64,000 nucleotides of DNA from Pseudomonadota bacterium (GCA_022361155.1 JAKSBK010000210.1:2364-66363), one strand, 5' to 3'; positions 17 to 49,400 are shown, counted from the stretch's first letter. A program made the numbers and translations. Notes: a model not told the origin generated them from the letters alone.

Positions 17-141
17 GTTCCCGCCCAGAATCGCGCGACAGCGGTTTACGTCCTCGCCCCGGCCCTGCGAAATACTTCCAGTATTCCTCGGTCCGGCGCT
101 CCGGGCGCACGCGCTCTCGCATCGATTCTGGGCGGGAACTA
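17..141. repeat. MITE-like palindromic interspersed element, copy D (about 123 bp)
   Basis: Terminal inverted repeats gttcccgcccagaatcg (17-33) and cgattctgggcgggaac (123-139). Central hairpin aatac/gtatt. Same architecture as the copies at 9522, 21251, 35803 and 36066. TAG (139-141, minus strand) abutting the repeat is the dnaJ stop. Confidence 0.75.
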
Positions 142-2903: not shown

Positions 2904-3086
2904 CTACATGGCGGTGCAAGAGTAGGGGAGGTCTTTCAATGCCTTCAGCAACCGGATAACTGGGCTGCCAACCGGAGCTGCGCTTTTTTTCGCAGGACCG
3001 AGCCCGAGGCCGAGAGCGCCCTCTTCCAGGAGCGCTGGTTGCGCTTGCAGCCCAGGCAGCCTACTCTTACTGGTAGGAGTAATACT

Positions 3087-3323
3087 ATGAAGATTACGTC
3101 AAAGGGCCAGGTGACCATCCCGTTCGAAGTGCGTGAGAGGCTCGGTTTGCTTCCGAATACAGAGGTAGAGTTCGTGATGGAGCGGAACGCGGTGCGCATC
3201 GTCAAGGTCGTGCCCCGACGAGGACGCGGTCGGGGGGGGGACGCCGTTGCTCGCCTGAAGGGACGAGCGGACGTTCGCATGAGCACAGAAGCGATCCTCG
3301 CCCTCACGCGCGCGAAGCGATGA
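3087..3323 (+). CDS. vapB: AbrB/SpoVT-type antitoxin (VapB-like)
   Basis: MKITSKGQVTIPFEVRERLGL swapped-hairpin motif. AGGAG SD upstream of ATG 3087. 4-nt overlap with the downstream PIN gene. Confidence 0.8.
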   Translation: MKITSKGQVTIPFEVRERLGLLPNTEVEFVMERNAVRIVKVVPRRGRGRGGDAVARLKGRADVRMSTEAILALTRAKR

Positions 3324-3733
3324 CCCGTGTTCTCGTCGACAGCAACGTCATTCTGGATGTAGCGACAAATGACCCCGACTGGTCCGACTGGTCAGCGAAC
3401 GCGCTCGAATCTGTAGCGAATCGATCGTCCCTCGCGATCAATGCTCTGATATACGCGGAGGTCTCGATCGCCTTCAGCCGTATCGAGGATCTGGAGCAAG
3501 CGCTCCCGTCAGCGCTGTATCACCGCGCAGTGCTTCCGTATGAAGCCGCCTTTCTTGCGGGTAAGGCCTTTGTTAAGTACCGGCGCAGGGGTGGTGTACG
3601 CACAGCTCCGCTTCCCGACTTCTACATCGGAGCACACGCCGCGGTTGCTGGCTTTCGGCTGCTGACAAGGGACACCAAGCGTTACAGGACGTACTTCCCG
3701 TCAGTCGAGCTTATCGGCCCGGAGCCGGAGTAG
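3320..3733 (+). CDS. vapC: PIN-domain ribonuclease toxin (VapC)
   Basis: N-terminal VLVDSNVILD acidic motif. About 137 aa. Translationally coupled (ATGA) to the AbrB-type antitoxin. Confidence 0.8.
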   Translation: MTRVLVDSNVILDVATNDPDWSDWSANALESVANRSSLAINALIYAEVSIAFSRIEDLEQALPSALYHRAVLPYEAAFLAGKAFVKYRRRGGVRTAPLPDFYIGAHAAVAGFRLLTRDTKRYRTYFPSVELIGPEPE

Positions 3734-9460: not shown

Positions 9461-9521
9461 GCCGCGACTAGTAGCACGAATCACGAGTTCACCAGGGTCC
9501 TGCGGACCGGCCACCAGTCCA

Positions 9522-9680
9522 AGGGCCCGCGGAAGAATAGCTCATCCATTTCGCCGGTTCTGACCACCGCCGGCTATGTTGCTCCTCCTCGAAGTATCCC
9601 CAATACTCCTCGTCGGCGCGCCTCGCCAGCGGCGCCCAGTCCTCACCGAAACGCACGAGTTATTCTTCCGCGGGCCCTAA
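9522..9680. repeat. MITE-like palindromic interspersed element, copy A (about 157 bp)
   Basis: Inverted repeats agggcccgcggaagaata (9522-9539) and tattcttccgcgggccct (9661-9678). Central hairpin agtat/atact. About 85% identical in reverse complement to 21251-21330. The CTA at 9677-9679 is the stop of the ABC ATPase gene. Confidence 0.8.
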
Positions 9681-10621
9681 GGGCCCGAATCCTGGTTGAC
9701 CGCCTTGCGCACGAAGAGGTCCTCGAGGGTCTCGCGCTTCGGCGTCACCGCGATCAAGGTAGCCTGATGGTCGAGCGCGCTGCGGACGACTTCAGGCACT
9801 GCTGCATCGCCTTCGATCGTGACTACCAGGCTGCCCTCCAAGTCGCTGATCTGCATGGCTTGCCGTTCGAGCTGCGCGCGGCACGCCGCGGTCACGTTCG
9901 CAAGCTCGACCTCGACGTGGCGCACCTCGGGTCGCAGGAGCGTGGAAAGCGACCCCGTTGCACTGACGAGGCCTTGATTCAGAATCGTCACCTCATCGCA
10001 GAGCATCTCGACATCGCTCAGGATGTGACTCGTGAAGATCAAGGTCTTGCCGCGCCTGCGTTGATCCAGCAGCACATCGCGCACGTGCTTGCGCCCTACG
10101 GGATCGAGCCCGCTGAACGGTTCGTCCAGGATCAGCATCTCGGGATCGTGCAGCAGCGCCTGCGCCAGGCCGATGCGTTGCATCATGCCTTTGGAGAAGC
10201 GACCGATCGGTCGATCGACGGCGTCCGAAAGCCCCACGTCTTCGAGCTGCTTCGTGCTGCGCGCCTTGCGTTCGCGTTCTTGGAGCCCCACCAGCCGGCC
10301 GCACAGGTCCAGAAACTCGAGCGGACGCAAATACTCGTAGACATAGGGGTTTTCGGGCAGGTAGCCCAGTCGCGCGCGCGCCTCGCGGCTGGCGCCCTCC
10401 GAGCCGAACAGCCGGATGCTGCCCCGGGGGGGATGGATCAGGCGCAGTGCCATCTTGATCGTCGTGGTCTTTCCTGCGCCGTTCGGTCCCAGAAAGCCGA
10501 AGATCTGGCCCCGCCGCACGCTGAAGCTAATGCCCCTGACCGCATGCACCGGCTTGCGAAAAAAGCCGATGCGGAACGTCTTGTGCAGGTCACGGACCTC
10601 GAGCACGCTGTCGCCAGCCAT
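9677..10621 (-). CDS. ABC transporter ATP-binding protein (ABC-2/DrrA-like), no adjacent permease
   Basis: Walker A GPNGAGKTT, signature FSKGMMQRIGLA, Walker B ILDEPFSGLD. Start ATG 10621 or 10651. Confidence 0.85.
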   Translation of the reverse strand: MAGDSVLEVRDLHKTFRIGFFRKPVHAVRGISFSVRRGQIFGFLGPNGAGKTTTIKMALRLIHPPRGSIRLFGSEGASREARARLGYLPENPYVYEYLRPLEFLDLCGRLVGLQERERKARSTKQLEDVGLSDAVDRPIGRFSKGMMQRIGLAQALLHDPEMLILDEPFSGLDPVGRKHVRDVLLDQRRRGKTLIFTSHILSDVEMLCDEVTILNQGLVSATGSLSTLLRPEVRHVEVELANVTAACRAQLERQAMQISDLEGSLVVTIEGDAAVPEVVRSALDHQATLIAVTPKRETLEDLFVRKAVNQDSGP

Positions 10622-10647
10622 GGAGCAGGGTGCGCGGCTGGCACGCG

Positions 10648-11778
10648 TCATGGTGCTTTTCCCGCGCCGCCCCCCAGCACAGCAGCGACGGCGTCGATCA
10701 CGAGTTGCTGTTCGCCGGCTTGCAGCGTCGGATAGAGCGGCAATGCGATGCCGTATTCGGCGATGTGCTGAGCGTTTGGAAAGGAGCGTCCCCGTTGCCG
10801 AGCCAGCTGGCTGGCCTGTGCCAGCTGCGGCAAGCTATGCATCGCGTACGAGAGCATACCGGCCTCGACGTTCCTGGCACGCAGCTGTTCGAGCACGCTG
10901 GCGCGCCGGCTTGCAGACCGCGGAAGCAGCGCGCCCATGGTCTGAACGTTCCACTCGGCACCGGCTGGGGCGCGCTGGAACTCGAGCCCGCCCAGCGCCG
11001 CACGGTAGCGGGCCGAGAGCGCTCGCCTGCGGGCCACGATGGCATCCAGACGTCCGAGCTGGATGCTGCCCATGGCGGCAGCCATTTCGGTGAGCCGGAA
11101 GTTACCCGCAGGCTCGCGGAACCGGCCGGGCGCGGATTGACCGTGGTTGCGCAAGACCGTGAGCCTGTGCGCCAGCTCGGGTTGGTCGGTCAGGCAGGCG
11201 CCCCCTTCGCCCGTAGTCAGCAGCTTTCTCGGATGGAAGCTGAGGCAGGCGATGAGTCCCATCGAACCGCAGGGCTCACCATGCAGGGAGCTTCCGAGGC
11301 TGCAGGCCGCGTCCACGATCAGCGGTAGCTCGCCCAGCGCCGCCTGGATTTCGGTCACTCGGGCGGGGACACCAAACTGGTCGATCACCACGGCGGCGCG
11401 CGTCCGATCGGTACGTGCTTCGGCGAACGCGGCGGGTAGGGCGTTCCATTCGTGGCGATCCACATCCACCAGCACGGGGCTCGCGCCGCAGCGGATGATG
11501 GCATGTGCGGGGCTTGGCCAGCTCAGATCCGGGCACAGTACCTCGTCGCCGGAGCCCACCCCCGCCGCCTGCAGCGCGAGGCTCAGCGCGGCCGTACCGC
11601 TCGCCACGGCGACCGCGAAGGTGCGCCGGCAGGTCGCGGCCAGCAACTCCTCGAACTCGGCGACCCGTTGCCCTTGCACGAGGCGGCCCGAACCGAGCAC
11701 CGCCGCCACGGCGTCGAGCTCTTCGGAGCCCAGCATCGGCTTGCACAGAGGGATCACTGCCAGGTCGCGTTGTCCCAA
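10648..11778 (-). CDS. DegT/DnrJ/EryC1/StrS-family PLP aminotransferase
   Basis: Family-typical fold pattern (GDEVLCPD..., SFHPRKLLTTGEGG with the PLP lysine region). 4-nt overlap with the downstream ABC ATPase. Confidence 0.8.
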   Translation of the reverse strand: MGQRDLAVIPLCKPMLGSEELDAVAAVLGSGRLVQGQRVAEFEELLAATCRRTFAVAVASGTAALSLALQAAGVGSGDEVLCPDLSWPSPAHAIIRCGASPVLVDVDRHEWNALPAAFAEARTDRTRAAVVIDQFGVPARVTEIQAALGELPLIVDAACSLGSSLHGEPCGSMGLIACLSFHPRKLLTTGEGGACLTDQPELAHRLTVLRNHGQSAPGRFREPAGNFRLTEMAAAMGSIQLGRLDAIVARRRALSARYRAALGGLEFQRAPAGAEWNVQTMGALLPRSASRRASVLEQLRARNVEAGMLSYAMHSLPQLAQASQLARQRGRSFPNAQHIAEYGIALPLYPTLQAGEQQLVIDAVAAVLGGGAGKAP

Positions 11779-12230: not shown

Positions 12231-12465
12231 GAGGTAACCGTTATCCGAACCGCAGCCCGGCGTATTCCTCGTGCGACTGCTGCGGGCGTGCGCGCCCAGA
12301 AAACCGCCCGAAAGCCCGGCTTCCTGGGACCCCGAACGGTTTCGTTGAGAGCCGAAGCCGAGCGCCTACTGTCGACCCCGTAGCGCCCATGTCACGATTG
12401 TTACGCTCGTGTGTCGAAAGCGACCCGTTTTTCCACAGCGCGGATCGGCGCCCATGTGGATTCCC

Positions 12466-21086: not shown

Positions 21087-21254
21087 ATGAAGGACGAAGT
21101 CCCTGGGCAGAGCGAACCACCTCAGGACCCAGCTAGGCGGCCCTACGAGCCACCGGCGATCGAAGAGAGCGCTCAATTCAGCGTGCTGGCCTTGGGCTGC
21201 GATATTCAGCCGGGGGTTTGCGAGTTCCCCGATACGCCCAGTGCGAGCCTTTAG
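21087..21254 (+). CDS. 55-aa acidic/Pro-rich peptide with two C-terminal Cys (candidate RiPP precursor)
   Basis: GGAGA SD 6 nt upstream of ATG 21087. Sequence MKDEVPGQSEPPQDPARRPYEPPAIEESAQFSVLALGCDIQPGVCEFPDTPSASL. Starts 20 nt after the FG-GAP gene stop and is followed by an S26 peptidase gene. Confidence 0.45.
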   Translation: MKDEVPGQSEPPQDPARRPYEPPAIEESAQFSVLALGCDIQPGVCEFPDTPSASL

Positions 21255-21411
21255 GGCCCGCGAGAGAATGATTTGCGCGTTTCGGCGAGGACCGGGCGCC
21301 GCTGGCAAGGCGCAACGACGAGGAATGTTGGGGATATTTCGAGGAGGATGGACACAGCCAGCCGTGGTCGGAAGCGGCGAAACCCATGGGGGCGCCGCTT
21401 CTGTTCGTGGA
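21251..21411. repeat. MITE-like palindromic interspersed element, copy B (about 160 bp, distal repeat degenerate)
   Basis: ttagggcccgcgagagaatg... aligns at about 85% to the reverse complement of 9601-9680. Central hairpin aatgt/atatt (with G-U). TAG 21252-21254 is the stop of the 55-aa ORF. Confidence 0.75.
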
Positions 21412-26017: not shown

Positions 26018-27949
26018 ATGCGCCCACCTAGCAGCTCTGGCAGCATGATCGGCGTAGCTGGCCTTTTGGCCGTGGCAGCGCTGGCCTGCGGAGGCGAAGA
26101 CGAGCACGCGGCACACGGCCTGACACCGGAAGATCGCACGTGGCTGCAGGACCTGTTGGCAACTGCGCCCGCGACCGGGGGTTTCGGCACGTCCGACCGC
26201 ACCACGCTGCAGGGGATCGCAACCGCGATCCAGATGGCCGCCGGGCCGACCGGCGGCTTCGGCGCATCCGACCGCACCACGTTGCAGGGGATCGCAACCG
26301 CGATCGAGATGGCCGCCATGCCGGTCACCACGCTTCCGCCCCAGGGCGGGCCGGGCTGTCATGCCTTGCGCCCCGGGCTCGAGCATAGCGGCACCGAGGG
26401 CGAGTTCATCGTGCGGCTGTTGAACGCCTCGCCGTGGCCCGAGCACCCCGGCAGACACACCTGGCTCGTCCAGCTGCTCGACATGAGCGGCAAGCCACCG
26501 ATGGGCGTCGGCATGGAGGTCGAGGCCCGCATGCCCGCGCACGCGCACGACGCCGGCCCGATCACCGTGCGCGATCGCTCGCCTGACTTCGGCGATGGAG
26601 TGTTCGAGATCGCCGGCATGGACCTAGCCATGGCCGGGCTGTGGGAGATCCGGATCGAGGCGACGCACAGAAACACGACCGACCAGATCCAGTTCAACGT
26701 GTGCCTGGTCGACCCGCCAGCGCCCGGACACGCCTTCGAGCAGCTCTACGTGTTCAGCCAGAGGCTCGGCAGCCCCAACGACCCCATGGACGACGAGGCC
26801 TGGATCACGATCCTCCGGCCCGGTGCCGAGAGGCCCGTGCTCGAGGAAATCGAAATGCACGGGGCCAACTGGGGCGATGCGGTCGTGGCTCCATCCGGCG
26901 AGCGGCTCTTCGTCAACGACCGGGGCAAGAACCAACTGGTGGTGATCGATACAGCCGCGCAAGCGGTGGAGGCCAGGCTCGACGTGGGTGGCCGGCCCAC
27001 GCATCTGTACAACCCCAACCACGGGCACGAAATCTGGACCCACTCCGACGCAGAGGGCGCGTTCTACATCGCGGACATCGACACGCTCGAGCTAATGGGA
27101 CCGGTCGTGGCGGCGCTCGACAACTCGGGTCACGGCAAGCTGGTCTACGACCCCTCGATCGCGCCGAAGGCGTACGCGACCAACACCAACGATGCCGCGG
27201 TCTTCCCGTTGGATCTGGACCACAAGACCGTGGACTACGCCATCCCGGTCTGCGGTTACACCGACAGCGCGGGCATGCCGGCCGGCGGCACCCACGACAA
27301 GGCCATCTCGCCCTTCAACGGCTATGCCTACTTCCAGTGCACCGGCGGCCAGGGTTTTTCCATTGTCGATACCAGCAACGATTCGGTGGTTCGCGACAAG
27401 CTGCCGCTGAGCGGTTCGGTGAGCCAGTCCCCGGACCACCGTTTCATCTTGGTGATCAATGCCTGCGTGGATGAACCGAGCTGCACCCAGGGCGAAGTCA
27501 ACGTCTGGGACACGCTGCTCGGCGATGGCGTCGCTGTTGATCACACCGTGTCGCTGAGCGGCCAGCCCAGCGCGCGCGGGACCCACTTCCTCGTGCCTGG
27601 AGGAAACTACAACCGCATGCTCGCCTACATCCCGCAGTCAGGCGGCAACGGCGTGGCCGTGCTCGATTTCGCCAAGCTCGTAGCCGATCCCCTGACCCCG
27701 CAAGCGGCAGTGAGCGTGGTCGGCGTGGGCGCGGTGGCCGACCCGGGCACGTCGCACTGGTCGCGCCGCGGGGCGCTCGGTGCGGATGCCTTCTACACGG
27801 TCGTCGACGATGTTTCGGGCCAAGCGGTCGCTGCGATCGCCCTGGACGATCACAGGGTCATGGGCGAACCGATCGCCATCAAAGGCGTGATCTCCCGCCT
27901 CGCGGTGGTTCCGGCCGGCCGAGGTCATGCCCGCGCAGCGGGCCCTTAG
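26018..27949 (+). CDS. Lipoprotein with YtkA/FixH-like Ig domain and a YVTN-type beta-propeller
   Basis: Lipobox LAVAALACGG. WLVQLLDMSGKPPMGVGMEVEARMPAHAHD...GLWEIRIEA resembles a YtkA/FixH-type domain. The C-terminal 400 aa are beta-propeller-like. Divergent from feoAB across the Fur box. Confidence 0.6.
   Translation: MRPPSSSGSMIGVAGLLAVAALACGGEDEHAAHGLTPEDRTWLQDLLATAPATGGFGTSDRTTLQGIATAIQMAAGPTGGFGASDRTTLQGIATAIEMAAMPVTTLPPQGGPGCHALRPGLEHSGTEGEFIVRLLNASPWPEHPGRHTWLVQLLDMSGKPPMGVGMEVEARMPAHAHDAGPITVRDRSPDFGDGVFEIAGMDLAMAGLWEIRIEATHRNTTDQIQFNVCLVDPPAPGHAFEQLYVFSQRLGSPNDPMDDEAWITILRPGAERPVLEEIEMHGANWGDAVVAPSGERLFVNDRGKNQLVVIDTAAQAVEARLDVGGRPTHLYNPNHGHEIWTHSDAEGAFYIADIDTLELMGPVVAALDNSGHGKLVYDPSIAPKAYATNTNDAAVFPLDLDHKTVDYAIPVCGYTDSAGMPAGGTHDKAISPFNGYAYFQCTGGQGFSIVDTSNDSVVRDKLPLSGSVSQSPDHRFILVINACVDEPSCTQGEVNVWDTLLGDGVAVDHTVSLSGQPSARGTHFLVPGGNYNRMLAYIPQSGGNGVAVLDFAKLVADPLTPQAAVSVVGVGAVADPGTSHWSRRGALGADAFYTVVDDVSGQAVAAIALDDHRVMGEPIAIKGVISRLAVVPAGRGHARAAGP
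26174..26317 (+). repeat. In-frame 75-nt tandem duplication (25-aa unit TGGFG[TA]SDRTTLQGIATAI[QE]MAA)
   Basis: Two near-identical units starting at 26174 and 26249, inside the lipoprotein CDS. Confidence 0.85.
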
Positions 27950-27995
27950 GGCCCGCGGAAGAATAGCTCGTCTGTATCGCCCGGTGAGTGACTCG
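27946..27995. repeat. Partial (one-arm) copy of the MITE-like element
   Basis: ttagggcccgcggaagaatagctcgtctgtatcgcc... matches the arm of copy A for about 45 bp. TAG 27947-27949 is the stop of the upstream lipoprotein. Truncated at the pstB 3' end. Confidence 0.6.
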
Positions 27996-28766
27996 TCAGC
28001 CATAGCGCCCTTCAATGTAGTTGGCGGTTCGCTTGTCCGTGGGATTGAGGAACAGGGTCTCGGTGCGAAGGTGCTCTATCTTCTCCCCCAGCAGCATGAA
28101 GACACACTCGTCGCTGACACGCCGGGCCTGAGCCATGTTGTGGGTGACGATCAAGATCGTGTAGCCGCCGCGAAGCTCCCTGATCAGCTCCTCCACCCGC
28201 TGGGTGGCCGCAGGATCAAGCGCAGAGCAGGGCTCGTCCATCAGCAACACCTCGGGCTTCAGCGGCAGCAGGCGGGCAATGCACAGCTTCTGCTGCTGCT
28301 CGAGAGGAAGGGTGGTCGCCCGCGCACGAAGCTTGTCCTTGAGGTCGTCCCATAGCCCGACTCGGCTCAGCGCCTGCTCTACGTAGGCCTCCGTTTCGCC
28401 TGACTTCGAGCGTTGCCCTCGATGAATCCTGAGTCCGAACACGATGTTCTCGGCTATGGACAGCGGAAGTGGGTTCGGCCGTTGGAAGACCATTCCGACC
28501 CGCCTGCGAAGCTCGATCAGATCGACCTCCGGCGCATAGATATCGTGGCCGAGTATCTGCACCGAGCCCACCGTACGCACGCCTTCGATGCGTTCGTTGA
28601 TCCGGTTGAAGCAGCGCAGCAGCGTGGTCTTTCCGCATCCAGAAGGGCCGATGAGCGCGGTGACCAACCCGTGCTTGATATCGAGGCTTACGTCCTTGAG
28701 CGCCTGAAAGTCCCCGTACCACAGGCTCAGCTCGCTGGCCCGGATTCCTTGCCGCACGGCCGTCAT
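27996..28766 (-). CDS. pstB: Phosphate ABC transporter ATPase PstB paralog 2 (degenerate signature motif)
   Basis: Canonical Walker A GPSGCGKTT, Q-loop VGMVFQRPNP, Walker B LLMDEP and H-loop IVTHNM. The ABC signature reads TLPLEQQQKL instead of LSGGQQQRL. Confidence 0.85.
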   Translation of the reverse strand: MTAVRQGIRASELSLWYGDFQALKDVSLDIKHGLVTALIGPSGCGKTTLLRCFNRINERIEGVRTVGSVQILGHDIYAPEVDLIELRRRVGMVFQRPNPLPLSIAENIVFGLRIHRGQRSKSGETEAYVEQALSRVGLWDDLKDKLRARATTLPLEQQQKLCIARLLPLKPEVLLMDEPCSALDPAATQRVEELIRELRGGYTILIVTHNMAQARRVSDECVFMLLGEKIEHLRTETLFLNPTDKRTANYIEGRYG

Positions 28767-29530
28767 CCGAACACGCCGTGCACGTACTCGAAGGTTCGGC
28801 GGTCAGCCGGTGTCCGGCCGAACACATCGTTCGTGGCCCCGACCTCCACCAGCTCGCCGTTCAGCAGGAATGCCGTTCTGTCGGCCAAACGCCGAGCTTG
28901 CTGCACGAGATTCGTCACCAGTATGATGGCCATTCGCTCGCGCAACTGCTTGAGCACGTCCTCGATTCGCATCGTGGTGACCGGATCGACGGCGATCGAA
29001 AACTCATCGAGACAAAGCACTTCGGGCTCGTGCGATAGCGCTCGCGCTATGGTGAGCCGTTGCTGCTGGCCGCCCGACAGCCGGGTTCCCAGGTCGTCGA
29101 GCCGGTCCTTGACCTCGTCCCACAACGCCGCCTGCTCGAGGCAGCGTTGCACGAGCCGGCCGATCTCGGTCCGGTCTCGAGGCCCGGCCATGCGGGGAGC
29201 AAAAGCAACATTGTCGAAAATCGACATGGGCAGTCCCACGGGTAGCGGCGCCACCATGCCGATACGACGCCGCAACATGGAGACGTTGCGCATCCTGTAG
29301 ACGTCTTCCCCGTCCAAGCGGACGGAGCCCTCCACCTTCACGTCCGCAATCCGCTCCAGGGTGCGATTGAGCACCTTCAGCAGGGTCGTCTTGCCGGACC
29401 CGGCGGGTCCTATGACGCCCAGGATCTCGTGAGCCCTCAGGTCGAGAGAGACCCTGTGCAAGGCCACCTTCGGGCCGTAGCTGACGCTGAGACCATCGAA
29501 CGCCACCTTGCTCACCACCTTGCTCACCAT
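28763..29530 (-). CDS. pstB: Phosphate ABC transporter ATPase PstB paralog 1 (canonical signature, degenerate Q- and H-loops)
   Basis: Walker A GPAGSGKTT and signature LSGGQQQRL. The Q-loop reads IGMVAPLP (no Gln) and the H-loop ILVTNLVQQA (His to Asn). Confidence 0.85.
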   Translation of the reverse strand: MVSKVVSKVAFDGLSVSYGPKVALHRVSLDLRAHEILGVIGPAGSGKTTLLKVLNRTLERIADVKVEGSVRLDGEDVYRMRNVSMLRRRIGMVAPLPVGLPMSIFDNVAFAPRMAGPRDRTEIGRLVQRCLEQAALWDEVKDRLDDLGTRLSGGQQQRLTIARALSHEPEVLCLDEFSIAVDPVTTMRIEDVLKQLRERMAIILVTNLVQQARRLADRTAFLLNGELVEVGATNDVFGRTPADRRTFEYVHGVFG

Positions 29531-30405
29531 TTTCTGCGGCTCCTGAGGTGGATTCGGAAGGCGATCGAGGCGGCGTTGACGGACAAGACGACGGCCAGCA
29601 GGGTCAGGGCGGTCGCGTAGGGAATGGCCTCGGGCACGTTCGGTACTTGGGTCGAGATCGTGAACAGGTGCATCGACAGCGCCATGCACTGGTCGTTGAC
29701 CGATTCAGGCAGCAGAGGCAGAAAGAAGGCGGCCCCGGTAAACATGATGGGGGCGGTTTCACCGGCGGCCCGCGAGACTTGGAGGATCACGCCGGTGAGG
29801 ATGCCGGCGATCGAGTTTGGGAGCACGACATGCCGGATGGTCTGCCAGCGAGACGCTCCCACGTTCCAACAGGCTTCCCGAAAGGCCATGGGGACGGCGG
29901 CAAGCGCTTCCTTGGTACTGGCGATGATGACGGGCAGCGTCATGATCGCCAGGGTCAGAGCCGCCGACAGAATGCTGGTCCCCAGGCCGAGAAAGAGCAC
30001 GAAGGCCCCCACCCCGAACAACGCGTGCACGATCGAGGGCACACCCGCGAGATTGATGATGGCAAGGTTGATGATCCGGGTGAACCAGTTATCGCGCGCG
30101 TATTCGTTCAGATACACTGCCGCCAGCACGCCGATGGGTGCGGCCACCAGCAGCGAGACGCCCACGAGCCATACGGTACCGACGATGGCTGGATAGATGC
30201 CGCCTGCCGTCATTCCGCGCATCGGCTCATCGAGAAGGAAGTCGAGGGTCATGGCGGGCGCCCCGCGAACGATCAGCAGTCCGATGATGCCCGTGAGAGG
30301 CAGGATGAGCACGAGGGTCATGCCGAAGAAAACGCCGTAGGCGACCTTCTCCGAGCGGTGCTTGCGCGCTCCTAGCTCAGTGGTGGCAAAGACCGACATG
30401 ATCAT
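29524..30405 (-). CDS. pstA: Phosphate ABC transporter permease PstA
   Basis: 6-TM MetI-like permease with an EAA-like loop (KEALAAVPMAFREACWNVGASRWQT). Position in the pst operon. Confidence 0.85.
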   Translation of the reverse strand: MIMSVFATTELGARKHRSEKVAYGVFFGMTLVLILPLTGIIGLLIVRGAPAMTLDFLLDEPMRGMTAGGIYPAIVGTVWLVGVSLLVAAPIGVLAAVYLNEYARDNWFTRIINLAIINLAGVPSIVHALFGVGAFVLFLGLGTSILSAALTLAIMTLPVIIASTKEALAAVPMAFREACWNVGASRWQTIRHVVLPNSIAGILTGVILQVSRAAGETAPIMFTGAAFFLPLLPESVNDQCMALSMHLFTISTQVPNVPEAIPYATALTLLAVVLSVNAASIAFRIHLRSRRKW

Positions 30406-30462
30406 GATCCTTCATGTAGCGGCGGCGACGACGTCAAGAACCTGAAATGACCTTTACTTCGG

Positions 30463-31485
30463 CTACCGCTGACGCACTCCGCGGACTGCGACATCCGCGA
30501 TCAGATTCACCATGAAGGTAAGCAGAAACAACAGCGTTCCCAGCACGAACAGGATCCGATAATGATCACTGCCCCTCGCCGTTTCACCGAGCTCGGCAGC
30601 TATGGTTGCGGTGATCGTGCGAACCGAATCGAGGGGACTCGTGGGGATGTTGACGGCGTGGCCCGTGGCCATGAGGACCGCCATCGTCTCGCCGATGGCC
30701 CTGCCCACGCCGAGCAGCACCGCGGCCAGCAGGCCGTTGCGCGCTGCGGGCAGCAGCACGCGCCAGGTTGTTTGCCAGCGTGTCGCTCCCATGGCCACGG
30801 CCGCCTCGCGGTACGTGTCGGGTACGGCCTTGAGCGCGTCCTCTCCGATCGAAACCATGATGGGCACGCTCATCAGCGCCAGCAGCAGCGCTCCGTTGAG
30901 GATATTGAGGCCGACGGGTGCGTCTAGCAGATCTATAATGATAGGATTGAGAATCATCAAGCCGATGAAACCCCAGACCACCGATGGGATCGCCGCCAGC
31001 AGCTCGACCACGACCTTGAGCGTCTCCTTGAGCCTGCCGGTGCAAAACTCCGAGACGTAGACCGCTGCGCCGAGCCCCAGCGGGATCGCCAGCAGCGTGG
31101 CCAGCAGCGTCACGCTGACCGTGCCGGCGATCAGCGCCAGCGCACCGTAGCGGGCGTTGACTTCGGAATCCGGATACCATGCGGGGCTGCCGACGAACTG
31201 GACGTAGTCAAGCCCACCGAAGAGCAGCGGAGCCGCCTCGCGGAACACGAAGTAGAAGATCCCGAACACGAAGATGACGGCGCTGACACCGCAGGCACGG
31301 ATCACCCACTCGATCAAGAGCTCGCTGGTGCGCCCGACACGCGCTCTGACGCTGCGGGACGGTTCGATCCGGCTACCTCGCGCATCCCCGGCGCCGCCGG
31401 CCGTGTGGTTGCTGCTCAAGATGGCCTCGTTGGGCTCCCATGGCGTCCAGATCGCTGCCCGGCCGTCCGAGACCTGTGGCCGCAT
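30463..31485 (-). CDS. pstC: Phosphate ABC transporter permease PstC
   Basis: Permease with EDALKAVPDTYREAAVAMGATRWQT. Operon context. Start uncertain. Confidence 0.85.
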   Translation of the reverse strand: MRPQVSDGRAAIWTPWEPNEAILSSNHTAGGAGDARGSRIEPSRSVRARVGRTSELLIEWVIRACGVSAVIFVFGIFYFVFREAAPLLFGGLDYVQFVGSPAWYPDSEVNARYGALALIAGTVSVTLLATLLAIPLGLGAAVYVSEFCTGRLKETLKVVVELLAAIPSVVWGFIGLMILNPIIIDLLDAPVGLNILNGALLLALMSVPIMVSIGEDALKAVPDTYREAAVAMGATRWQTTWRVLLPAARNGLLAAVLLGVGRAIGETMAVLMATGHAVNIPTSPLDSVRTITATIAAELGETARGSDHYRILFVLGTLLFLLTFMVNLIADVAVRGVRQR

Positions 31486-31537
31486 GCCTCCATAGGGGGG
31501 CGGGAGACTCCGAGCTGCAGGGTTGGGTCCACGCGCC

Positions 31538-32428
31538 TCAATGTTGTCTGAGCGTGGCCTTGGTGATCGGGGCGTAGCCCACGCTCTTGACGATCGCCTG
31601 AGCCGCCTGGGACTTCACCCAGCTCAGGTACTTGGCGATGGCACCCTTGGGCTCGCCCAACGTGTACATGTACAGCGCTCGCGCGATCGGGTAGCGCCCC
31701 GACATGGCCGTCTCCATGGTGGGCTCGACGCACGGCTTGCCCGCATCAACCTGCACGCACATGGCCTTGACCGCGCCGGTTTTGTACCCCATGCCGCTGT
31801 AACCGATCGCGCACGGCGTGTGCTGGACCAGATCCACGACGTCCTTGGAGCCTTGCATATCCCGCGAACCGAGCTTGAAGTCCTGGGTCTTGCCAAGCAC
31901 CCATGACCGGAAGAACGCATACGTTCCCGAGTTGTTCTGGCGACCCACCCGCACGATTTCCTGTCCGGCGCATCCAGGGACCTCGACCTTGAGGTCGGTC
32001 CACTTGGTGCAGGTGCCCTTCTCTCCGTAGATGCAGGCCAGCTGCTCTCGAGAGATGTGTGCCATGGGGTTGGATTTGTGTGCGTAGACCGCCAGGGCAT
32101 CGTAGGCGACGGTGTGCTCGACCGGGTCCTTGCCGGTGTTCTTCTTGGCCGCCTTTCGCTCCTTGTCCTTGATCCGACGGCTGGCGTTGGCGATGTCGAC
32201 CGTGCCGTTCATGAGCGCCGCGATCCCGGTCCCCGAACCGCCGCCGGTCACCGCGATCACCACGTTGGAATCCACCTTGCGGTATTCCTCCGCCCAGGCC
32301 TGCGCCAGGTTGACGATCGTATCCGACCCCTTGTTCTGGATCATCGCGCGTTCGCCCCGCCCGCTGCTGCATGCCAGCCCGCCGCTGCATGCCAAGAGCG
32401 CGGCCCCGAGTAAGACGACGTACCTCAT
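31538..32428 (-). CDS. pstS: Phosphate-binding protein PstS (lipoprotein)
   Basis: Signal peptide and lipobox LLACSGG. GSDTIVNLAQAWAEEY...VTGGGSGTGIAAL PBP motif. Confidence 0.85.
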   Translation of the reverse strand: MRYVVLLGAALLACSGGLACSSGRGERAMIQNKGSDTIVNLAQAWAEEYRKVDSNVVIAVTGGGSGTGIAALMNGTVDIANASRRIKDKERKAAKKNTGKDPVEHTVAYDALAVYAHKSNPMAHISREQLACIYGEKGTCTKWTDLKVEVPGCAGQEIVRVGRQNNSGTYAFFRSWVLGKTQDFKLGSRDMQGSKDVVDLVQHTPCAIGYSGMGYKTGAVKAMCVQVDAGKPCVEPTMETAMSGRYPIARALYMYTLGEPKGAIAKYLSWVKSQAAQAIVKSVGYAPITKATLRQH

Positions 32429-33543
32429 GCTTCTTCCTCTCTGCGGTCAGCGCCTATCAAAGCGTCGGTCAATTCCTTGATTCGCGAATCCAAGGATTCG
32501 AAGCATTCTTGATATGCCTTGTGCCGTTCTTCTGCGGAACCGGTTGCCAAGGACGGGTCCGCAATGTCCCAGTGAAGCTGAACCGCATCGTAGGCGACGG
32601 CCGGGCACGTGTCCTCGGCTTCCTTGCACAGGGTCACGATGACATTGAAGTCTTCGATCGGACCCAGCTTGGCGGTCGACTTGGAGCGTTGCCGCGAAAT
32701 GTCGAGTCCCCGCTCCAGCATGAAATCGACCGCTCCTCGATCGAGCGCGCCAGGATCGGTGCCGGCACTTGCGAAGATCAGGTGGCCCGGGGCGACGCTT
32801 CGGGCAATCGCCTCCGCCATTTGGCTTCTGCACGCATTGCGCCTGCAGAGAAACAGCACGCGCACGTCCTCGCGAGGCAGATGGCGCAACACCTCACCGC
32901 GTACAACATACACCGCCTCCTCCGCGATGTTGCAGGCTCGATCGGCCACCCGCTCGATGCGATTGATGAGCCCCACGAGCGCGAATCGCACCGGCAGATT
33001 GACATTCCCCTCCGCGGGCTCGGCCAGCGCCTCGAAGATCTGGGAGTTGAGCCGGTCGACCTGCTGATCGGCGTCGAGGGTTCGAGTCGCAGCCTCCGCG
33101 TCTCCCTGGAGAAACGCTTCTACCGCATCGTCCAACATCCCAAAAGACACCTTGGACATCTGCAGAATGTGCTCGCGCTGGGGAATGTTCCGGGCCTCCG
33201 ACGTGACGGCCACCCTCCTGGCGATAGCTTCCGCATAGTCACCGATCCGCTCCAGCTCCGAGTTGACCTTCGCGACAGCCACGGCAAAGCGCAGATGCGT
33301 CGACACGGGCATGTGGCGCACCAGGAACTCCTGGCACATCCGATCGATGTGGCGCTCCATGACGTCGATCCGGTGATCCCTGAGCACGACCCGGTAAGCG
33401 AGCTTGCGATCACCTTCCGAAAAAGCGCTGACGGCGTCCTTGAGCTGACTCACCACCAGCTTGGCCATGCTGCGGACCCGCTCGCGCAGCGCCGTGATGT
33501 CGCGCTCGAGCCGCTCCTCGAGGTGCAGTGCCGGGCTGTTCAT
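32425..33543 (-). CDS. phoU: PhoU domain fused to an ArsC/LMW-PTP-fold domain
   Basis: N-terminal about 215 aa carry duplicated PhoU helices (ELERIGDYAEAIA / NRIERVADRACNIAEEA). The C-terminus has VLFLCRRNACRSQMAEA (CX5R P-loop) and TLCKEAEDTCP (Cys-X6-Cys as in Trx-coupled ArsC). ATGA overlap with pstS. Confidence 0.75.
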   Translation of the reverse strand: MNSPALHLEERLERDITALRERVRSMAKLVVSQLKDAVSAFSEGDRKLAYRVVLRDHRIDVMERHIDRMCQEFLVRHMPVSTHLRFAVAVAKVNSELERIGDYAEAIARRVAVTSEARNIPQREHILQMSKVSFGMLDDAVEAFLQGDAEAATRTLDADQQVDRLNSQIFEALAEPAEGNVNLPVRFALVGLINRIERVADRACNIAEEAVYVVRGEVLRHLPREDVRVLFLCRRNACRSQMAEAIARSVAPGHLIFASAGTDPGALDRGAVDFMLERGLDISRQRSKSTAKLGPIEDFNVIVTLCKEAEDTCPAVAYDAVQLHWDIADPSLATGSAEERHKAYQECFESLDSRIKELTDALIGADRREEEA

Positions 33544-33556
33544 TTCGGGCTCGAGC

Positions 33557-34048
33557 CTAGTTGATGTCCGGGGATGCCACAACAGCGACGACCGTGCGGC
33601 GGCGTGTCGCGTGCGCCGCGGTTGAGCCGCGGCACCCGAGCGGGGAGGCCGGCCCAGGGCTGCCTCGGACGCAGCCGCGGGTTGGCCCTGGCAGCCGGGG
33701 GCTCCCGCAAGCCATGCCAATGGCCATTACGACGAAGGCGAACCCGACGTCTCGCGTTTCCTTCACGGCATTCCTGAAGCGGATGATGGGCAGCGCGCCC
33801 ACCAGCGAGAAGGCACGCGCCAGGTTGGAGCCTATGATCAACATGATAGGAGCCACGACCATGCCCAGAAGCACCAGGGTTTGAGTGTATGACTGCGAGT
33901 ACGAAATACCCTGGTGAGTGTAGCGATAGATCCATGCGATCATCGACGACAATACGTAGCTGAGCAGCAGCACGATGCCGACATCCGCCAGCGTGAAAGC
34001 GCTGGTGATATCCCTGAACCGCTCCATTTCCTTCAAAAGCTCGTCCAA
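33557..34048 (-). CDS. DUF4956-like membrane protein, apparently C-terminally truncated or divergent
   Basis: The first about 115 aa match the DUF4956 pattern (...GALPIIRFRNAVKETRDVGFAFVVMAIGMACG). The last 48 aa are Arg/Pro/Gly-rich and non-membrane. Confidence 0.5.
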   Translation of the reverse strand: MDELLKEMERFRDITSAFTLADVGIVLLLSYVLSSMIAWIYRYTHQGISYSQSYTQTLVLLGMVVAPIMLIIGSNLARAFSLVGALPIIRFRNAVKETRDVGFAFVVMAIGMACGSPRLPGPTRGCVRGSPGPASPLGCRGSTAAHATRRRTVVAVVASPDIN

Positions 34049-35802: not shown

Positions 35803-35906
35803 GGCGGTCTTCTGGGCGGCTTTCGTCCTCGGCCTCGCCCTGCGAAGTACGCGTAGTACTCCTCGGGCGATTCCTGCGGGCGCGCTCGCCCAGAAGACCG
35901 CCTAAA
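35803..35906. repeat. MITE-like palindromic interspersed element, copy C (about 100 bp)
   Basis: Inverted repeats ggcggtcttctgggcg (35803-35818) and cgcccagaagaccgcc (35887-35902), followed by TAA. Central hairpin agtac/gtact. Confidence 0.7.
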
Positions 35907-36065: not shown

Positions 36066-36191
36066 GTTCCCGTTCAGAATGGATGCCAGAGCGAGCGCGC
36101 CCGCAGGAGCGGAGCGAAGGAATAGCAGCGCTATTTCAAGCTTCGGTCTGAGGACGAAAGCCGCTCTGGCGCCATTCTGAACGGGAACTAG
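36066..36191. repeat. MITE-like palindromic interspersed element, copy E (about 123 bp)
   Basis: Inverted repeats gttcccgttcagaatgg (36066-36082) and ccattctgaacgggaac (36172-36188), followed by TAG. Central hairpin aatagc/gctatt. Confidence 0.75.
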
Positions 36192-37113: not shown

Positions 37114-37560
37114 ATGTTGGCCGAGCAAGATATCCTGCCCTTGCTGAGCGCGGCCGCGGCGGCCCGAAACAATGCGTACGCTCCGTACTCGCGCTTCCGA
37201 GTGGGAGCGGCATTGCTGGCGGGCGAGCGTGTGATTCGCGGCTGCAACGTGGAAAACGCCGCCTATGGAGACAGCATCTGTGCCGAGCGTGGCGCCGTGC
37301 TGGCCGCGGTCGCGGCCGGGCTTAGGGAGTTTCGCGCCCTGGCGGTGTCCACGGAAGCGAGCACGCCCGTGCCACCCTGCGGTAGCTGCCGTCAGGTACT
37401 GCGCGAGTTCTGCCTCGACGACTTCCCCATCGTGATGGGCGCAGCGAGCGGTACCTACACCGTGGTCAGCCTCAACGACCTGTTGCCGGCCGCCTTTACG
37501 AGCCGCTCGCTATCGGACGCTGGCCGGCCCCCGTGGCCGCCCCGCCCGCCGCCGCGCTAG
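37114..37560 (+). CDS. cdd: Cytidine deaminase
   Basis: AYAPYSRFRVGAALL, CAERGAV (zinc and catalytic Glu) and PCGSCRQVLREF motifs. Confidence 0.9.
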   Translation: MLAEQDILPLLSAAAAARNNAYAPYSRFRVGAALLAGERVIRGCNVENAAYGDSICAERGAVLAAVAAGLREFRALAVSTEASTPVPPCGSCRQVLREFCLDDFPIVMGAASGTYTVVSLNDLLPAAFTSRSLSDAGRPPWPPRPPPR

Positions 37561-38951
37561 AACGCCGCCTGCAGCTGCACGCGCAACCGGACGACGCCCT
37601 GGCTCCGCTGCTCGCCGTATCCCCACAACTGGAACAGATCCGCCTGCAACTTGAAGGGGTGGCGCGCGAAATAGTAGCCGCCCACGATGCCCAACTCGTT
37701 CTTGCCCTTGAGCACCGAAGCGTCGCCGCCGGGACGGGTCATCCCGAAGCGTGCCCCGAGCTCCAAAGCCATGCCTGGAAGCAGGTACCCGCCCTGCAGC
37801 ATCCAGCCTATGCCGTCGGCCAGGTCGGTGCCTCCGCGACCATCGCGCCAATAGAAATCGCCGAGCACCGAGAGCCCGGCGTACTTGAACAGCAGATCGG
37901 CGTTGGCATTGTGAAAGGTGTCGTCGTCCGCTTCGGGCGCCCTGCCCTTGATGCCCTGCACGCCCGGTGCGTTCTGCAGGTAGGCATAGCCCACCCCGAG
38001 CGAGAGCCGCGGCTTCGCTGTGCGTTCGAAGTCCGCCTCCGAGTAATCCTTGAACATGCCGAAGGGCAGCAGCTCGAAGCGAATCAGGTACATGAGGCCC
38101 AGGTCACCCGCACCGGGAGTCCTATCCGAGGTGTTGCGGCCCTCGCCGATGTAGACGCCCGCGTAGTAGCGAAACAAGCCCAGGCCGAGTAGATCCTTGG
38201 ACCGGAAGTCGAGTCCCAGATCCCGGTCCAAGGTGAACTCGCCGTTCGTGATGGCGCGATCGACGAACTGCAGATTGCCCGACGAGATCACCCGCTGCCG
38301 GCTGTAGGGCACCTTGTACTGGCCGACGCGCAGGGTCAGGTCGCGCAGGTAGTCGAACGTCATGTACCAGTCGAGCAGCGGCGTGGTGCCTACAACATTG
38401 CTACGCGTCGTGCCCGTCACTCCCATGCCCATGCCCGTGGGATCCTGAAGCACGACCGTCGGCTGCGTCAGGTCTTCGTCGCGCGGCGAAAACGCGAGCT
38501 CGATCTTGAACGTGTTGTGCTTGCCCCACATGTTGCCGACGAACTGCAAGCGCGCGCGACGAATGTGGAAGACCTCCTCGTCGGGTCCCCCGGCTACCCC
38601 TTCGTACTCGTAGCGGAACTGGCCGCGCAAGCGCGTGACCAGAGCAAAGCGTCCGTCCGCACTCTTGAACTCCAAGCCCTTGCCCGGGCGGAAGCGCGCA
38701 CTCGAGGCATCCGCCGGGTGGTCCTTGACGAGATCCCTTTCCCAGCTCGGGGGAGGATTGGGCCCCAAGGCATCCGAGTCGGTTTTCACGTTCGCTGCAC
38801 GATGGGGTTCTGCCAAGCTCGTTCCTGCAGGCGGCGGCGAGCGCTCACCGCTTTCGTGCGCGTGTTGGGCCTGCCCAGCGTTCGCCGCTCCGAGCCACAA
38901 CCAACAGATGGCGGCACCCCTGAGCCGCTGCCTACTTCGATCCAATGACAT
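37557..38951 (-). CDS. Outer-membrane porin, putative phosphate-selective porin O/P family (paralog 1)
   Basis: Signal peptide from ATG 38951 and beta-barrel periodicity. C-terminal RLRVQLQAAF. Highly similar to the adjacent paralog. The family assignment is recalled, not searched. Confidence 0.6.
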   Translation of the reverse strand: MSLDRSRQRLRGAAICWLWLGAANAGQAQHAHESGERSPPPAGTSLAEPHRAANVKTDSDALGPNPPPSWERDLVKDHPADASSARFRPGKGLEFKSADGRFALVTRLRGQFRYEYEGVAGGPDEEVFHIRRARLQFVGNMWGKHNTFKIELAFSPRDEDLTQPTVVLQDPTGMGMGVTGTTRSNVVGTTPLLDWYMTFDYLRDLTLRVGQYKVPYSRQRVISSGNLQFVDRAITNGEFTLDRDLGLDFRSKDLLGLGLFRYYAGVYIGEGRNTSDRTPGAGDLGLMYLIRFELLPFGMFKDYSEADFERTAKPRLSLGVGYAYLQNAPGVQGIKGRAPEADDDTFHNANADLLFKYAGLSVLGDFYWRDGRGGTDLADGIGWMLQGGYLLPGMALELGARFGMTRPGGDASVLKGKNELGIVGGYYFARHPFKLQADLFQLWGYGEQRSQGVVRLRVQLQAAF

Positions 38952-39265
38952 GCTTTTGCGCCTCGTGTACGTCCCGGCGGTCCTGGAACAGTGATTGCTT
39001 AGATAGCTCGGGTAGCTTGGGTAACTCGGTGAGCGAAACCTTAAAACCCAAGTTCCCTCAAAGCTCAAGCTCGGGAAAGTGCAGGGGCATGCACCAATCC
39101 GGACCAATCGAGCCGTACAACGCCCCAGGATACAGGCGTGACCGCCCCGGAGACGGGGAGGGCAGCGAGCACCCCATGCATGCAGGCCCGTACCAACCCG
39201 CATCCGAGCTCACTCGCCGGTTGGCGCGCAGCCCAACAGCGTGGCCGCTCGAGCGTTTCGTAGGC

Positions 39266-41559: not shown

Positions 41560-41796
41560 ATGAAGCCAGGCATCCATCCCGAATACCAACAGTCCGTTAT
41601 CACCTGCGCGTGTGGGGCGCGCTACGAGACCCGCTCGACGCGCGGTTCGTTCACCGTCGACCTATGCGCTCAGTGCCATCCCTTCTACACGGGACAGCAG
41701 CGTGTCGTGGATTCCGCCGGTCGCATCGATCGCTTTCGCAGGAAATACGCCAAAAAGGCGGACACGAAACGCAAGAAACCGACTGACACCTCTTAG
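41560..41796 (+). CDS. rpmE: 50S ribosomal protein L31
   Basis: MKPGIHPEY...CxC...[12 protein letters not shown]... is the canonical zinc-ribbon L31. Confidence 0.95.
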
Positions 41797-41811
41797 GGCC
41801 GTCCAAGAATA
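41793..41811. repeat. Solo terminal-repeat-like motif of the MITE family at the rpmE stop
   Basis: cTTAGGGCCgtccAAGAATAa compared with TTAGGGCCCGCGGAAGAATA. The TAG at 41794-41796 is the rpmE stop. Confidence 0.4.
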
Positions 41812-41893
41812 ACCGGTCGAGACCGGCCGCGCAGCGTGGAGGCGATTCGTCCCCGGATGCGACCCCCACCTTGGTGCGGTATACTGATCCGTC

Positions 41894-49354: not shown

Positions 49355-49400
49355 TTCCGCGGCCCGGGAATTCGAACCGGGGTTTCTGGGCCGTCGTGCC
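49351..49400. repeat. Possible degenerate core-less relative of the MITE family
   Basis: cTAGTTCCgcggcccgggAATtcg resembles TTAGTTCCCGCCCAGAATCG and is followed by the inverted ggtttctgggccg. The TAG at 49352-49354 is the stop of the 771-aa ORF. Confidence 0.3.

Follow-up and report, generated by a model that had tools for sequence, protein, structure and literature searches.

Short repeats such as Correia/NEMIS in Neisseria, ERIC/IRU in enterobacteria and RUP in pneumococcus are 100–200 bp long and have terminal inverted repeats (TIRs) and TA-centered duplications. They are intergenic, are co-transcribed with their neighbors, form long hairpins, and are moved in trans (see the review PMC10969869). 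The insertion sequences (ISs) of the ISAzo13 family (Pfam PF07592, NCBIfam NF033519) are reported to make 3-bp target duplications (PMC10045372). We describe here a family of palindromic elements, among them the one at positions 9522–9680, in a stretch of 64,000 nucleotides from a Pseudomonadota bacterium (GCA_022361155.1 JAKSBK010000210.1:2364-66363), the whole of which is referred to as the window. The elements resemble the first group in length, TIRs, duplications, intergenic position and long hairpins, and probably also in co-transcription and movement in trans. The TIR of several of them (GGGCCCGCG..AAYAAC) and their 3-bp duplication are those of ISAzo13-family ISs, from which they differ in length (about 104–161 bp), in the lack of a transposase gene, and in an unrelated interior. 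The window copies are probably non-coding passengers, or miniature transposable elements with inverted repeats (MITEs), of ISAzo13-family insertion sequences, moved in trans. No description of ISAzo13 MITEs was found in the searched literature.

The window is 65% GC chromosomal DNA on a metagenome scaffold (ENA ERZ23487888, sample SAMN24292870), with housekeeping genes including dnaJ, uvrB, prfA, the pst operon and feoB. Five full copies had been claimed from the sequence alone (the original prediction), and all five are present at those places, with their limits refined below. The two solo ends it named are also real, as found with an end-motif search, and a possible end at 49351–49400 shows weak resemblance only and is not confirmed. 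The ends of the copies rank among the longest inverted repeats found in a search of the window. The copies and fragments are:

17–139, minus strand: copy 1 (c1), a full copy of 123 bp with a type-B core; perfect 18-nt TIR GTTCCCGCCCAGAATCG; inverted repeat 16–33/123–140 (18 nt, 100% match); central hairpin 68–90; flanks TGA (14–16) and TAA (140–142); fold z score −9.2; covariance model 25.5 bits, E 6e-5.
9523–9677, minus strand: copy 2 (c2), a full copy of 155 bp with a type-A core; ISAzo13-type TIR GGGCCCGCGGAAGAATA[G/A]CTC; inverted repeat 9522–9553/9647–9678 (32 nt, 88% match); central hairpin 9590–9612; flanks CAA (9520–9522) and TAA (9678–9680); covariance model 89.8 bits.
9681–9692: TIR remnant GGGCCCGAATCC, read directly, with the TAA in common with c2 (compare the TIR GGGCCCGCGGAAGAAT).
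12258–12335, plus strand: right half of a type-B copy, closest to c4 and absent from the list of the original prediction; nhmmer profile match at 12258–12309 (E 1.7e-6) and a further match at 12259–12335 (E 1e-6).
21251–21411, plus strand: copy 3 (c3), a decayed type-A copy; TTA at 21251–21253, left TIR at 21254–21275, right TIR eroded (end near 21411); central hairpin 21319–21341, containing a G·U pair; covariance model 76.7 bits.
27946–27995, plus strand: solo left end; TTA (27946–27948) followed by the TIR GGGCCCGCGGAAGAATAGCTCGTC.
35803–35906, minus strand: copy 4 (c4), type B, 104 bp, with its own inverted ends GGCGGTCTTCTGGGCG and CGCCCAGAAGACCGCC; inverted repeat 35793–35818/35887–35912 (26 nt, 85% match); central hairpin 35843–35865; fold z score −6.9; covariance model 20 bits, E 0.003.
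36066–36188, plus strand: copy 5 (c5), type B, inverted relative to c4; perfect 17-nt TIR GTTCCCGTTCAGAATGG; inverted repeat 36066–36082/36172–36188 (17 nt, 100% match); divergent central hairpin 36115–36140 (aatagc/gctatt); fold z score −10.6.
41793–41814, plus strand: solo end, in which a diverged ISAzo13-type TIR, GGGCCGTCCAAGAATAACC, comes after TTA.

Two subtypes can be distinguished, type A (c2 and c3, about 160 bp, 76% identical) and type B (c1, c4 and c5, 104–125 bp). The five full copies and the fragments adjoin unrelated genes and have no transposase gene inside, and all copies are intergenic, as had been predicted. The solo end at 27946–27995 occupies the 46-bp gap between two convergent genes, an arrangement that recurs on contigs L001 and L002. 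In the window, the end motif TA[GA]-KKCC[CG]G-N3-6-RGAAT occurs 6 times with 0.08 expected, and the core pattern occurs 3 times with 0.00 expected. An nhmmer profile from the five copies recovers all five (E 1e-22 to 1e-27), and the covariance model, run with filters off over the whole window, finds no further copies.

Insertion sequences of 1.3 kb found in metagenomes have TIRs that match the ends of c2 and c3 and the solo ends (GGGCCCGCGgAAGAATAaC). A metagenome scan with the end TWAGGGCCCGCGBADRAAYANC gave at least 120 loci, and among the matches listed inverted TIR pairs are 1316–1357 bp apart at five loci. The three of these that were examined each have a single open reading frame (ORF) of 411–412 residues. 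All three ORFs match Pfam DDE_Tnp_ISAZ013 (E 1e-133 to 1e-146), and the two that were scanned against NCBIfam match ‘ISAzo13 family transposase’ (E 8e-180 and 4e-165), with IS630 as a weak second match (E 1e-11). A tblastn search with two query transposases finds matches in 20 of the 120 metagenome loci listed, 18 of them substantial (174–412 residues aligned, 43–100% identity). The IS TIR GGGCCCGCGCAGAAATAACTTTTAC, seen for example as TAA-GGGCCCGCGCAGAAATAACTTTTAC and GGGCCCGCGTATGAACAACCG, is a close match to the window TIR GGGCCCGCGGAAGAATAACTCG. Moreover, the IS TIRs GGGCCCGCGCA[G/A/T]AAATAAC.. and GGGCCCGCGTATGAACAAC.. bound ISAzo13 transposase genes and match the window TIR GGGCCCGCGGAAGAATA[A/G]CTC. 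There is close agreement between IS ends of this kind and the MITE ends found in the window and in the Sandaracinaceae, CAMASI and JBKDQC metagenome-assembled genomes (MAGs). The original prediction had proposed to look for an autonomous partner IS that shares the inverted ends; the outcome is positive, in the form of these elements of 1316–1357 bp with an ISAzo13-family transposase gene.

Identical 3-nt flanks are found in 19 of 33 TIR pairs, MITEs and ISs together (TTA in 11 and TAA in 8). Of the 33 pairs, 23 have C as the preceding base and 27 have G as the following base. Among the genome loci, which were ascertained by the core (see below), identical flanks were seen in 8 of 16 elements chosen by eye; a first, loose regular expression for the TIR was swamped there by chance matches in GC-rich DNA, and only true elements were used. 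If the flanks merely extended the inverted repeat, TTA would pair with TAA, and that combination is rare. In addition, two paralogous sites at locus L183 are related as empty CATTC-TGC-GGCG and filled CATTC-TTA-[MITE]-TTA-GGCG. The target of elements with an ISAzo13-type TIR is C-TWA-G, with a 3-bp duplication.

Because of the TIR match and the 3-bp TWA duplication, c2, c3 and the solo ends are assigned as ISAzo13-family MITEs. The MITE reading of the original prediction holds, and the elements can now be named; as a kind they are ordinary, MITEs with an identified partner family. ISAzo13, a little-studied IS family, gains both MITEs and a target rule, C-TWA-G with 3-bp duplication. PIF/Harbinger elements likewise make a 3-bp TWA duplication, and their relatives of the Nuwa II group are reported to have a C-TNA-G target context (PMC4482050). 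Zator, a eukaryotic relative of ISAzo13, also makes 3-bp duplications (PMC5718144, PMC10045372). Zator and the eukaryotic Tourist MITEs of PIF/Harbinger differ from the present elements in host domain, and PIF/Harbinger transposases are related to IS5, not to ISAzo13.

In the proposed mechanism, an ISAzo13-family DDE transposase encoded elsewhere would bind the TIRs of about 20–27 bp (GGGCCCGCG..AAYAAC), excise the element and paste it into C-TWA-G, with duplication of the 3-bp TWA. The elements themselves show the TIR match and the duplication, and the catalysis is presumed from the family. Insertion at or just before a stop codon would leave the gene terminated, with TTA or TAA and the first G of the TIR giving TAG or TAA. 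In a 65% GC genome, gene-end sites would be where insertions are tolerated, as the counts of abutting stops given below suggest.

The copies had been predicted to sit at gene 3′ ends. This is true as a location; it is not evidence for terminators, as it follows from the target C-TWA-G. The copies probably abut gene ends because TWA with the first G of the TIR reads as a TAG or TAA stop. The flanking TA and the first TIR base form the stop codons of dnaJ (141..139), of an ABC ATPase gene (9679..9677), and of the gene at 26018–27949 (27947–27949). Copy c1 exactly fills the space between the convergent stops of a FliI/type III secretion system (T3SS)-type ATPase gene (TGA, 14–16) and dnaJ (TAG), with no other intergenic DNA. 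The FliI-like ATPase gene is whole on contigs L244–L247, and the c1 arrangement is seen at L244 2599–2742. Stop codons are touched by c1, c2 and the solo end at 27946. Copy c2 and the c4/c5 pair are also located upstream of the next gene. In the listed genome loci, the stops of long ORFs adjoining elements are TAG in 36 cases, TGA in 13 and TAA in 9, often exactly at the boundary. Target choice, together with tolerance of such insertions, would account for the 3′-end location, and no terminator role is needed. No intrinsic-terminator-like sites (G+C-rich stem and T run) were found in c2, c4 and c5 on either strand, and no promoter-like sites in the copies examined. The target rule would also make sense of a puzzle that keeps recurring in GC-rich genomes, in which a gene runs directly into a palindrome and terminates at TAG.

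The ABC ATPase gene (9677–10651, minus strand) and a YtkA-like gene (26018–27949, plus strand) are unrelated, and both end in ..GGGCCC-TTA-G (..GP followed by the stop). The remnant at 9681–9692 encodes the last residues of the ABC ATPase (..SGP and the stop). The last codons of both genes appear to be built from a TIR remnant, the duplicated TTA and the G of the next TIR; the C termini of these genes would thus have been remodeled by the elements, and for annotation this means that some gene C termini here may be built from transposon ends. A short segment at 27938–27945 (GCGGGCCC), beside the solo end at 27946, resembles the tail of a second TIR. Back-to-back elements often share one TTA or TAA (L028 5745–6106, L110, L113, and 9678–9692 and 27938–27954 in the window), which suggests that insertion is favored at the junction beside a copy already present (CCC-TWA-GGG).

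Copies c1, c4 and c5 have other ends, GTTCCCGCCCAGAAT in c1 and c5 and GGCGGTCTTCTGGGCG in c4, which resemble the ISAzo13 TIR only in outline. They share their core, and thus the interior module, with elements bearing ISAzo13 TIRs, and are probably moved by a related enzyme. These three copies and their CTAG-flanked relatives could instead be MITEs of a different transposase, IS630-like or IS5-like, with an interior module shared with ISAzo13 MITEs, an alternative that we regard as a serious contender, falling somewhat short of probable. The ends at issue (GTTCCCGCCCAGAAT, GTGCACCGCCG) differ from GGGCCCGCG, and other arm families, including those of Vicinamibacterales and Sandaracinaceae, are flanked by CTAG..CTAG and twice by CGAG..CGAG, the CTAG-type ends being GTGCACCGCCGTCGAGATG and GTCACCCGTCTCAGCG. 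TA within CTAG is the signature of IS630-type elements, and a 4-bp YTAR that of IS5-type elements; the weak score of the ISAzo13 transposases against the IS630 model (E 1e-11) points the same way. However, about 1.5 Mb of fetched loci contain no autonomous element with those ends, and the c1/c5 TIR has the outline of the ISAzo13 TIR (G-KK-CCCG-N-AGAAT). Moreover, the CAMASI elements and those at L145/L161 combine a type-B core with ISAzo13 TIRs.

The core pattern CYKCGAARTAYNNNNNRYAYTCCTCGK was used to look for relatives, each species being represented by one genome; this gave at least 120 loci, with about 10 chance matches expected by our own estimate. This genome sample is ascertained by the core and the metagenome sample by the TIR, and the taxon labels of MAGs may be wrong. 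About a quarter of the listed genome matches are chance matches inside genes, most of which, by our own reading of the sequences, encode EEYFLYFEE; such look-alikes are seen in many phyla (L003, L010, L015, L022, L034, L037, L044 and others). The remaining matches listed are 84 palindromic elements, which fall into more than 20 unrelated arm groups when clustered by their arms alone. Their hosts are MAGs labeled Sandaracinaceae, Polyangiales and Myxococcota, Labilithrix luteola (in strain DSM 27648 a copy is located at L074 886–1048), Desulfobacterales, and a Clostridia MAG of 48% GC; a Vicinamibacterales MAG has at least 16 copies. The same core is thus inside elements with differing arms and ends, in MAGs labeled Myxococcota, Acidobacteriota, Desulfobacterota and Clostridia. 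In low-GC MAGs (L054, L106, L122, 40–54% GC), the core takes the form CCTCGAAATAC-N5-GTATTCCTCG within A/T-richer palindromic repeats. Three identical copies are found on three contigs of the Clostridia MAG (47.7% GC; L004 5540, L040 1697, L076 3145). In comparison, Correia/NEMIS, ERIC/IRU and RUP are each confined to one genus or family, and a survey found that 97.4% of MITE clusters do not extend beyond a single genus (bioRxiv 10.1101/2024.01.18.576219). Among viral contigs the core pattern has one chance match, within a coding region, and a BLAST search of c2 against 72,556 plasmids gave no relevant match. The elements also break assemblies, with many matches at contig ends, and so matter for the quality of soil Myxococcota and Acidobacteriota MAGs.

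The amino acid sequence of the chance matches raises the question of a coding core, in which the purine-rich strand would encode a small acidic peptide (..ARRDDEEYxxYFEEEQR..). In most families the core does read DEEYxxYFEE in one frame, and some copies have an ATG/GTG-to-stop ORF of 25–55 codons. In other copies (L009, L027, L096, L122), however, in-frame stops are located 2–4 codons upstream of the core with no intervening start, and in still others stops follow the core immediately. The nucleotides GAC GAG GAA are kept in hosts of 40–48% GC instead of synonymous codons, and copies with replaced stems alter the ‘peptide’ yet keep the pairing. A peptide is rejected as having next to no likelihood.

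The three copies that were folded (c1, c4 and c5) each form one long imperfect hairpin, with z scores of −6.9 to −10.6. The central stems of the window copies read exactly as given in the original prediction: agtat/atact, aatgt/atatt (G·U), agtac/gtact, aatac/gtatt and aatagc/gctatt. Its claim of compensatory change in this stem is upheld by the copies from other genomes, where each variable position, left free in the search pattern, forms a Watson-Crick pair, or a G·U pair on the purine strand, in 84 of the 84 listed elements; chance coding matches show mismatches. Further stem variants are seen in copies found by covariance model or without reference to the core (nhmmer on arms, TIR-ascertained MITEs): AATGC/GCATT, GATGC/GCATC, CGCAC/GTGCG, GCATAC/GTATGT, GCACAT/ATGTGT and TAATAT/ATATA. 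At L056 5864–6014, L070 5253–5428 and L038 194–347, the scaffold CTGCGTTGC.. / ..GCGCCTTG is kept and the central hairpin is replaced (GATGC/GCATC, CGCAC/GTGCG). The design of the core recurs in another TIR-defined family, in which the tandem G·A motifs read AGAU/AGAU.

A consensus structure was calculated with RNAalifold for the purine-rich strand of 18 unrelated type-A elements. It has a 7-bp A/T-rich central stem with an invariant G·U pair, followed by two or three 2x2 loops, which are tandem G·A pairs with single C-G pairs between them. Beyond these are conserved internal loops, CAAGG / CAACGCAG, and a 14-bp outer helix that shows both-side changes at every pair. Paired cells amount to 89.3%, as compared to 69.3% in shuffles, and the covariation score is 0.527, as compared to 0.179 when shuffled and at most 0.157 with slid partners. 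The outer helix covaries well beyond both of these controls.

The two strands of the elements are not equivalent. Counted in the arms only, with the central 37 nt excluded, there are 125 G·U-compatible mismatches on the purine strand and 49 on the other strand, and 119 and 28 G·A mismatches, respectively. In 30 of 31 arm groups, folding energy is predicted to be lower for the purine strand; the remaining group is a chance match in a coding region. All irregularities favor folding of the purine strand, so that this strand appears to be under selection in some single-stranded form, as RNA or single-stranded DNA (ssDNA). The most likely reason would be that folding aids the spread or persistence of the element. 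The mismatches of Correia/NEMIS, ERIC/IRU and RUP differ from those of the present elements in this respect, the latter being systematically strand-specific. The elements are oriented at random with respect to the abutting gene (30 versus 28), and with respect to local GC skew they show no significant bias (49 versus 32, p 0.07). With no orientation bias, neither a sense-strand role in 3′ untranslated regions (3′-UTRs) nor a replication-strand mechanism has support.

A strand-specific fold would suit a single-strand mechanism such as that of the REP/REPIN elements, which are moved as single-stranded hairpins by a RAYT (HUH Y1) transposase. These are likewise extragenic palindromes that form long hairpins, often at gene 3′ ends, and the nTAG ends of the present elements are superficially like the GTAG head of REP. 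Target duplications are not expected of IS200/IS605-RAYT-type transposition, and here 3-bp direct duplications are present. The ends are TIRs of DDE-type ISAzo13 elements, the conservation peaks in the center and not at the ends, no Y1_Tnp domain is found in the window ORFs, and the orientation to local GC skew has no significant bias, as given above. Movement by a RAYT is largely refuted and very improbable. The label ‘REP-like’ of the original prediction is accordingly not supported, as the elements have no GTAG head, have target duplications, and have a DDE transposase rather than RAYT as partner.

Integron attC sites are also imperfect palindromes directly after stop codons, with one-strand folding that matters and a structure that is kept while the sequence varies. 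The present elements lack R″/R′ boxes (RYYYAAC / GTTRRRY), a cassette array and an integrase, and their copies are dispersed next to housekeeping genes, dnaJ and uvrB among them. An attC assignment was rejected on the ends (TWA-GGGCCCGCG or TAG-TTCCCG), on this dispersal with spacings of 10 kb or more, and on the window ORFs, which have no integrase domain. A hammerhead-like reading of CGAAA-stem-U was also rejected by eye, with no CUGANGA box and with G in c2 at the equivalent of A15.1. The core shows no evident fit to the consensus of the IHF site, the LexA box or the ARG box.

The elements could also be mainly functional structured RNAs (3′-UTR stabilizers, processing sites, protein-binding RNAs or small RNAs), with the core as the active part of the RNA and the spread by transposon ends as secondary. 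Such a role would fit the strong pair covariation, the invariant G·U and tandem G·A pairs on one strand only, the excess of G·U and G·A mismatches over their complements, and the internal-loop sequences kept across unrelated arms in MAGs labeled as four phyla. Copies directly after stop codons are, moreover, probably co-transcribed. On the other hand, palindromic DNA can show ‘covariation’ without RNA, orientation to the abutting gene is random, and neither promoter-like nor intrinsic-terminator-like sites were found. The TIRs, the target duplications and the decayed copies (c3; L043 2799–2969) are marks of mobile elements. In Rfam 15, the whole window has no match at gathering thresholds. With E values up to 10, there is none on c2 and nothing meaningful on c4/c5 and ten related loci, and matches elsewhere are sub-threshold generic hairpins, for instance plant miRNA precursors that score 20 bits where the thresholds are 90–140 bits. 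We consider it unlikely that the elements are mainly RNAs of this kind.

Several observations weigh against the identification of the window copies as ISAzo13 MITEs. An ISAzo13 transposase is absent from the 64-kb window, the only part of the source genome covered, by ORF scans and tblastn. The absence of any transposase gene from the window was predicted, and is borne out by a scan of about 50 ORFs against Pfam, which found none. The tblastn search also gave no match in the genome loci of the core-pattern scan. TIR pairs revealed no autonomous partner among the 120 genome loci listed, the partner having come from the metagenome TIR scan, and the fetched loci contain no autonomous element with the ends of c1, c4 and c5 or with CTAG-family ends. 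The duplications in the window are imperfect (CAA/TAA for c2, TGA/TAA for c1, none for c5). An orthologous empty site was obtained for none of the window copies; all 5 of the 5 contigs that encode an identical DnaJ carry c1, and the identical-protein look-up for the ABC ATPase gave no record. Neither a core shared across unrelated arms and four labeled phyla nor the strand-specific mismatch pattern would be expected from a plain MITE model. Finally, the core is not inside the ISs, to which the interior is unrelated, and the interior of the MITEs is derived from elsewhere than the IS.

We tentatively raise the possibility that the interior is a functional structured nucleic-acid module (a stem with G·U, tandem G·A and CAAGG / CAACGCAG), folding on one strand only and riding on MITEs. 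MITEs would have carried such a module, or captured it repeatedly, their ends being of two kinds at least, one ISAzo13-type with TWA duplication and one CTAG-flanked. As RNA or ssDNA, it might bind a universal host factor or the transposase; alternatively, one strand might fold while cruciform extrusion is prevented. Either could raise the spread or persistence of the element. If so, the module would be an undescribed class of RNA/ssDNA motif on DDE-transposon MITEs, and its strand-specific core across four labeled phyla could show whether MITE interiors are selected functional modules or filler.

Two of the MAGs call for comment. The bin labeled Klebsiella pneumoniae (CAMASI01...) carries many such MITEs (L017, L028, L042, L055, L060, L066, L068, L087, L090, L095, L100, L102, L108, L110, L113, L117). 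Its fetched loci are 63.8% GC, well above Klebsiella, and the bin looks mislabeled or contaminated. At L118 1–420 (and in L049), in a delta-proteobacterial MAG, a type-B unit is repeated head-to-tail with a 130-bp period, in at least 3.2 copies of 98% identity. This array, which is located at the margin of the fetched sequence, is a tandem amplification, not dispersed insertion.

Three features of neighboring genes in the window were also observed. An ORF at 32425–33720, at the end of a pstSCAB-like operon (27996–32428), fuses two PhoU domains and a low-molecular-weight phosphotyrosine phosphatase domain. Two phosphate-selective porin genes are located near this operon (37557–40678). At 3039–3733, a PIN-domain gene (3320–3733) overlaps a preceding ORF of 94 codons (3039–3323), a layout usual for toxin-antitoxin systems of the VapBC type.

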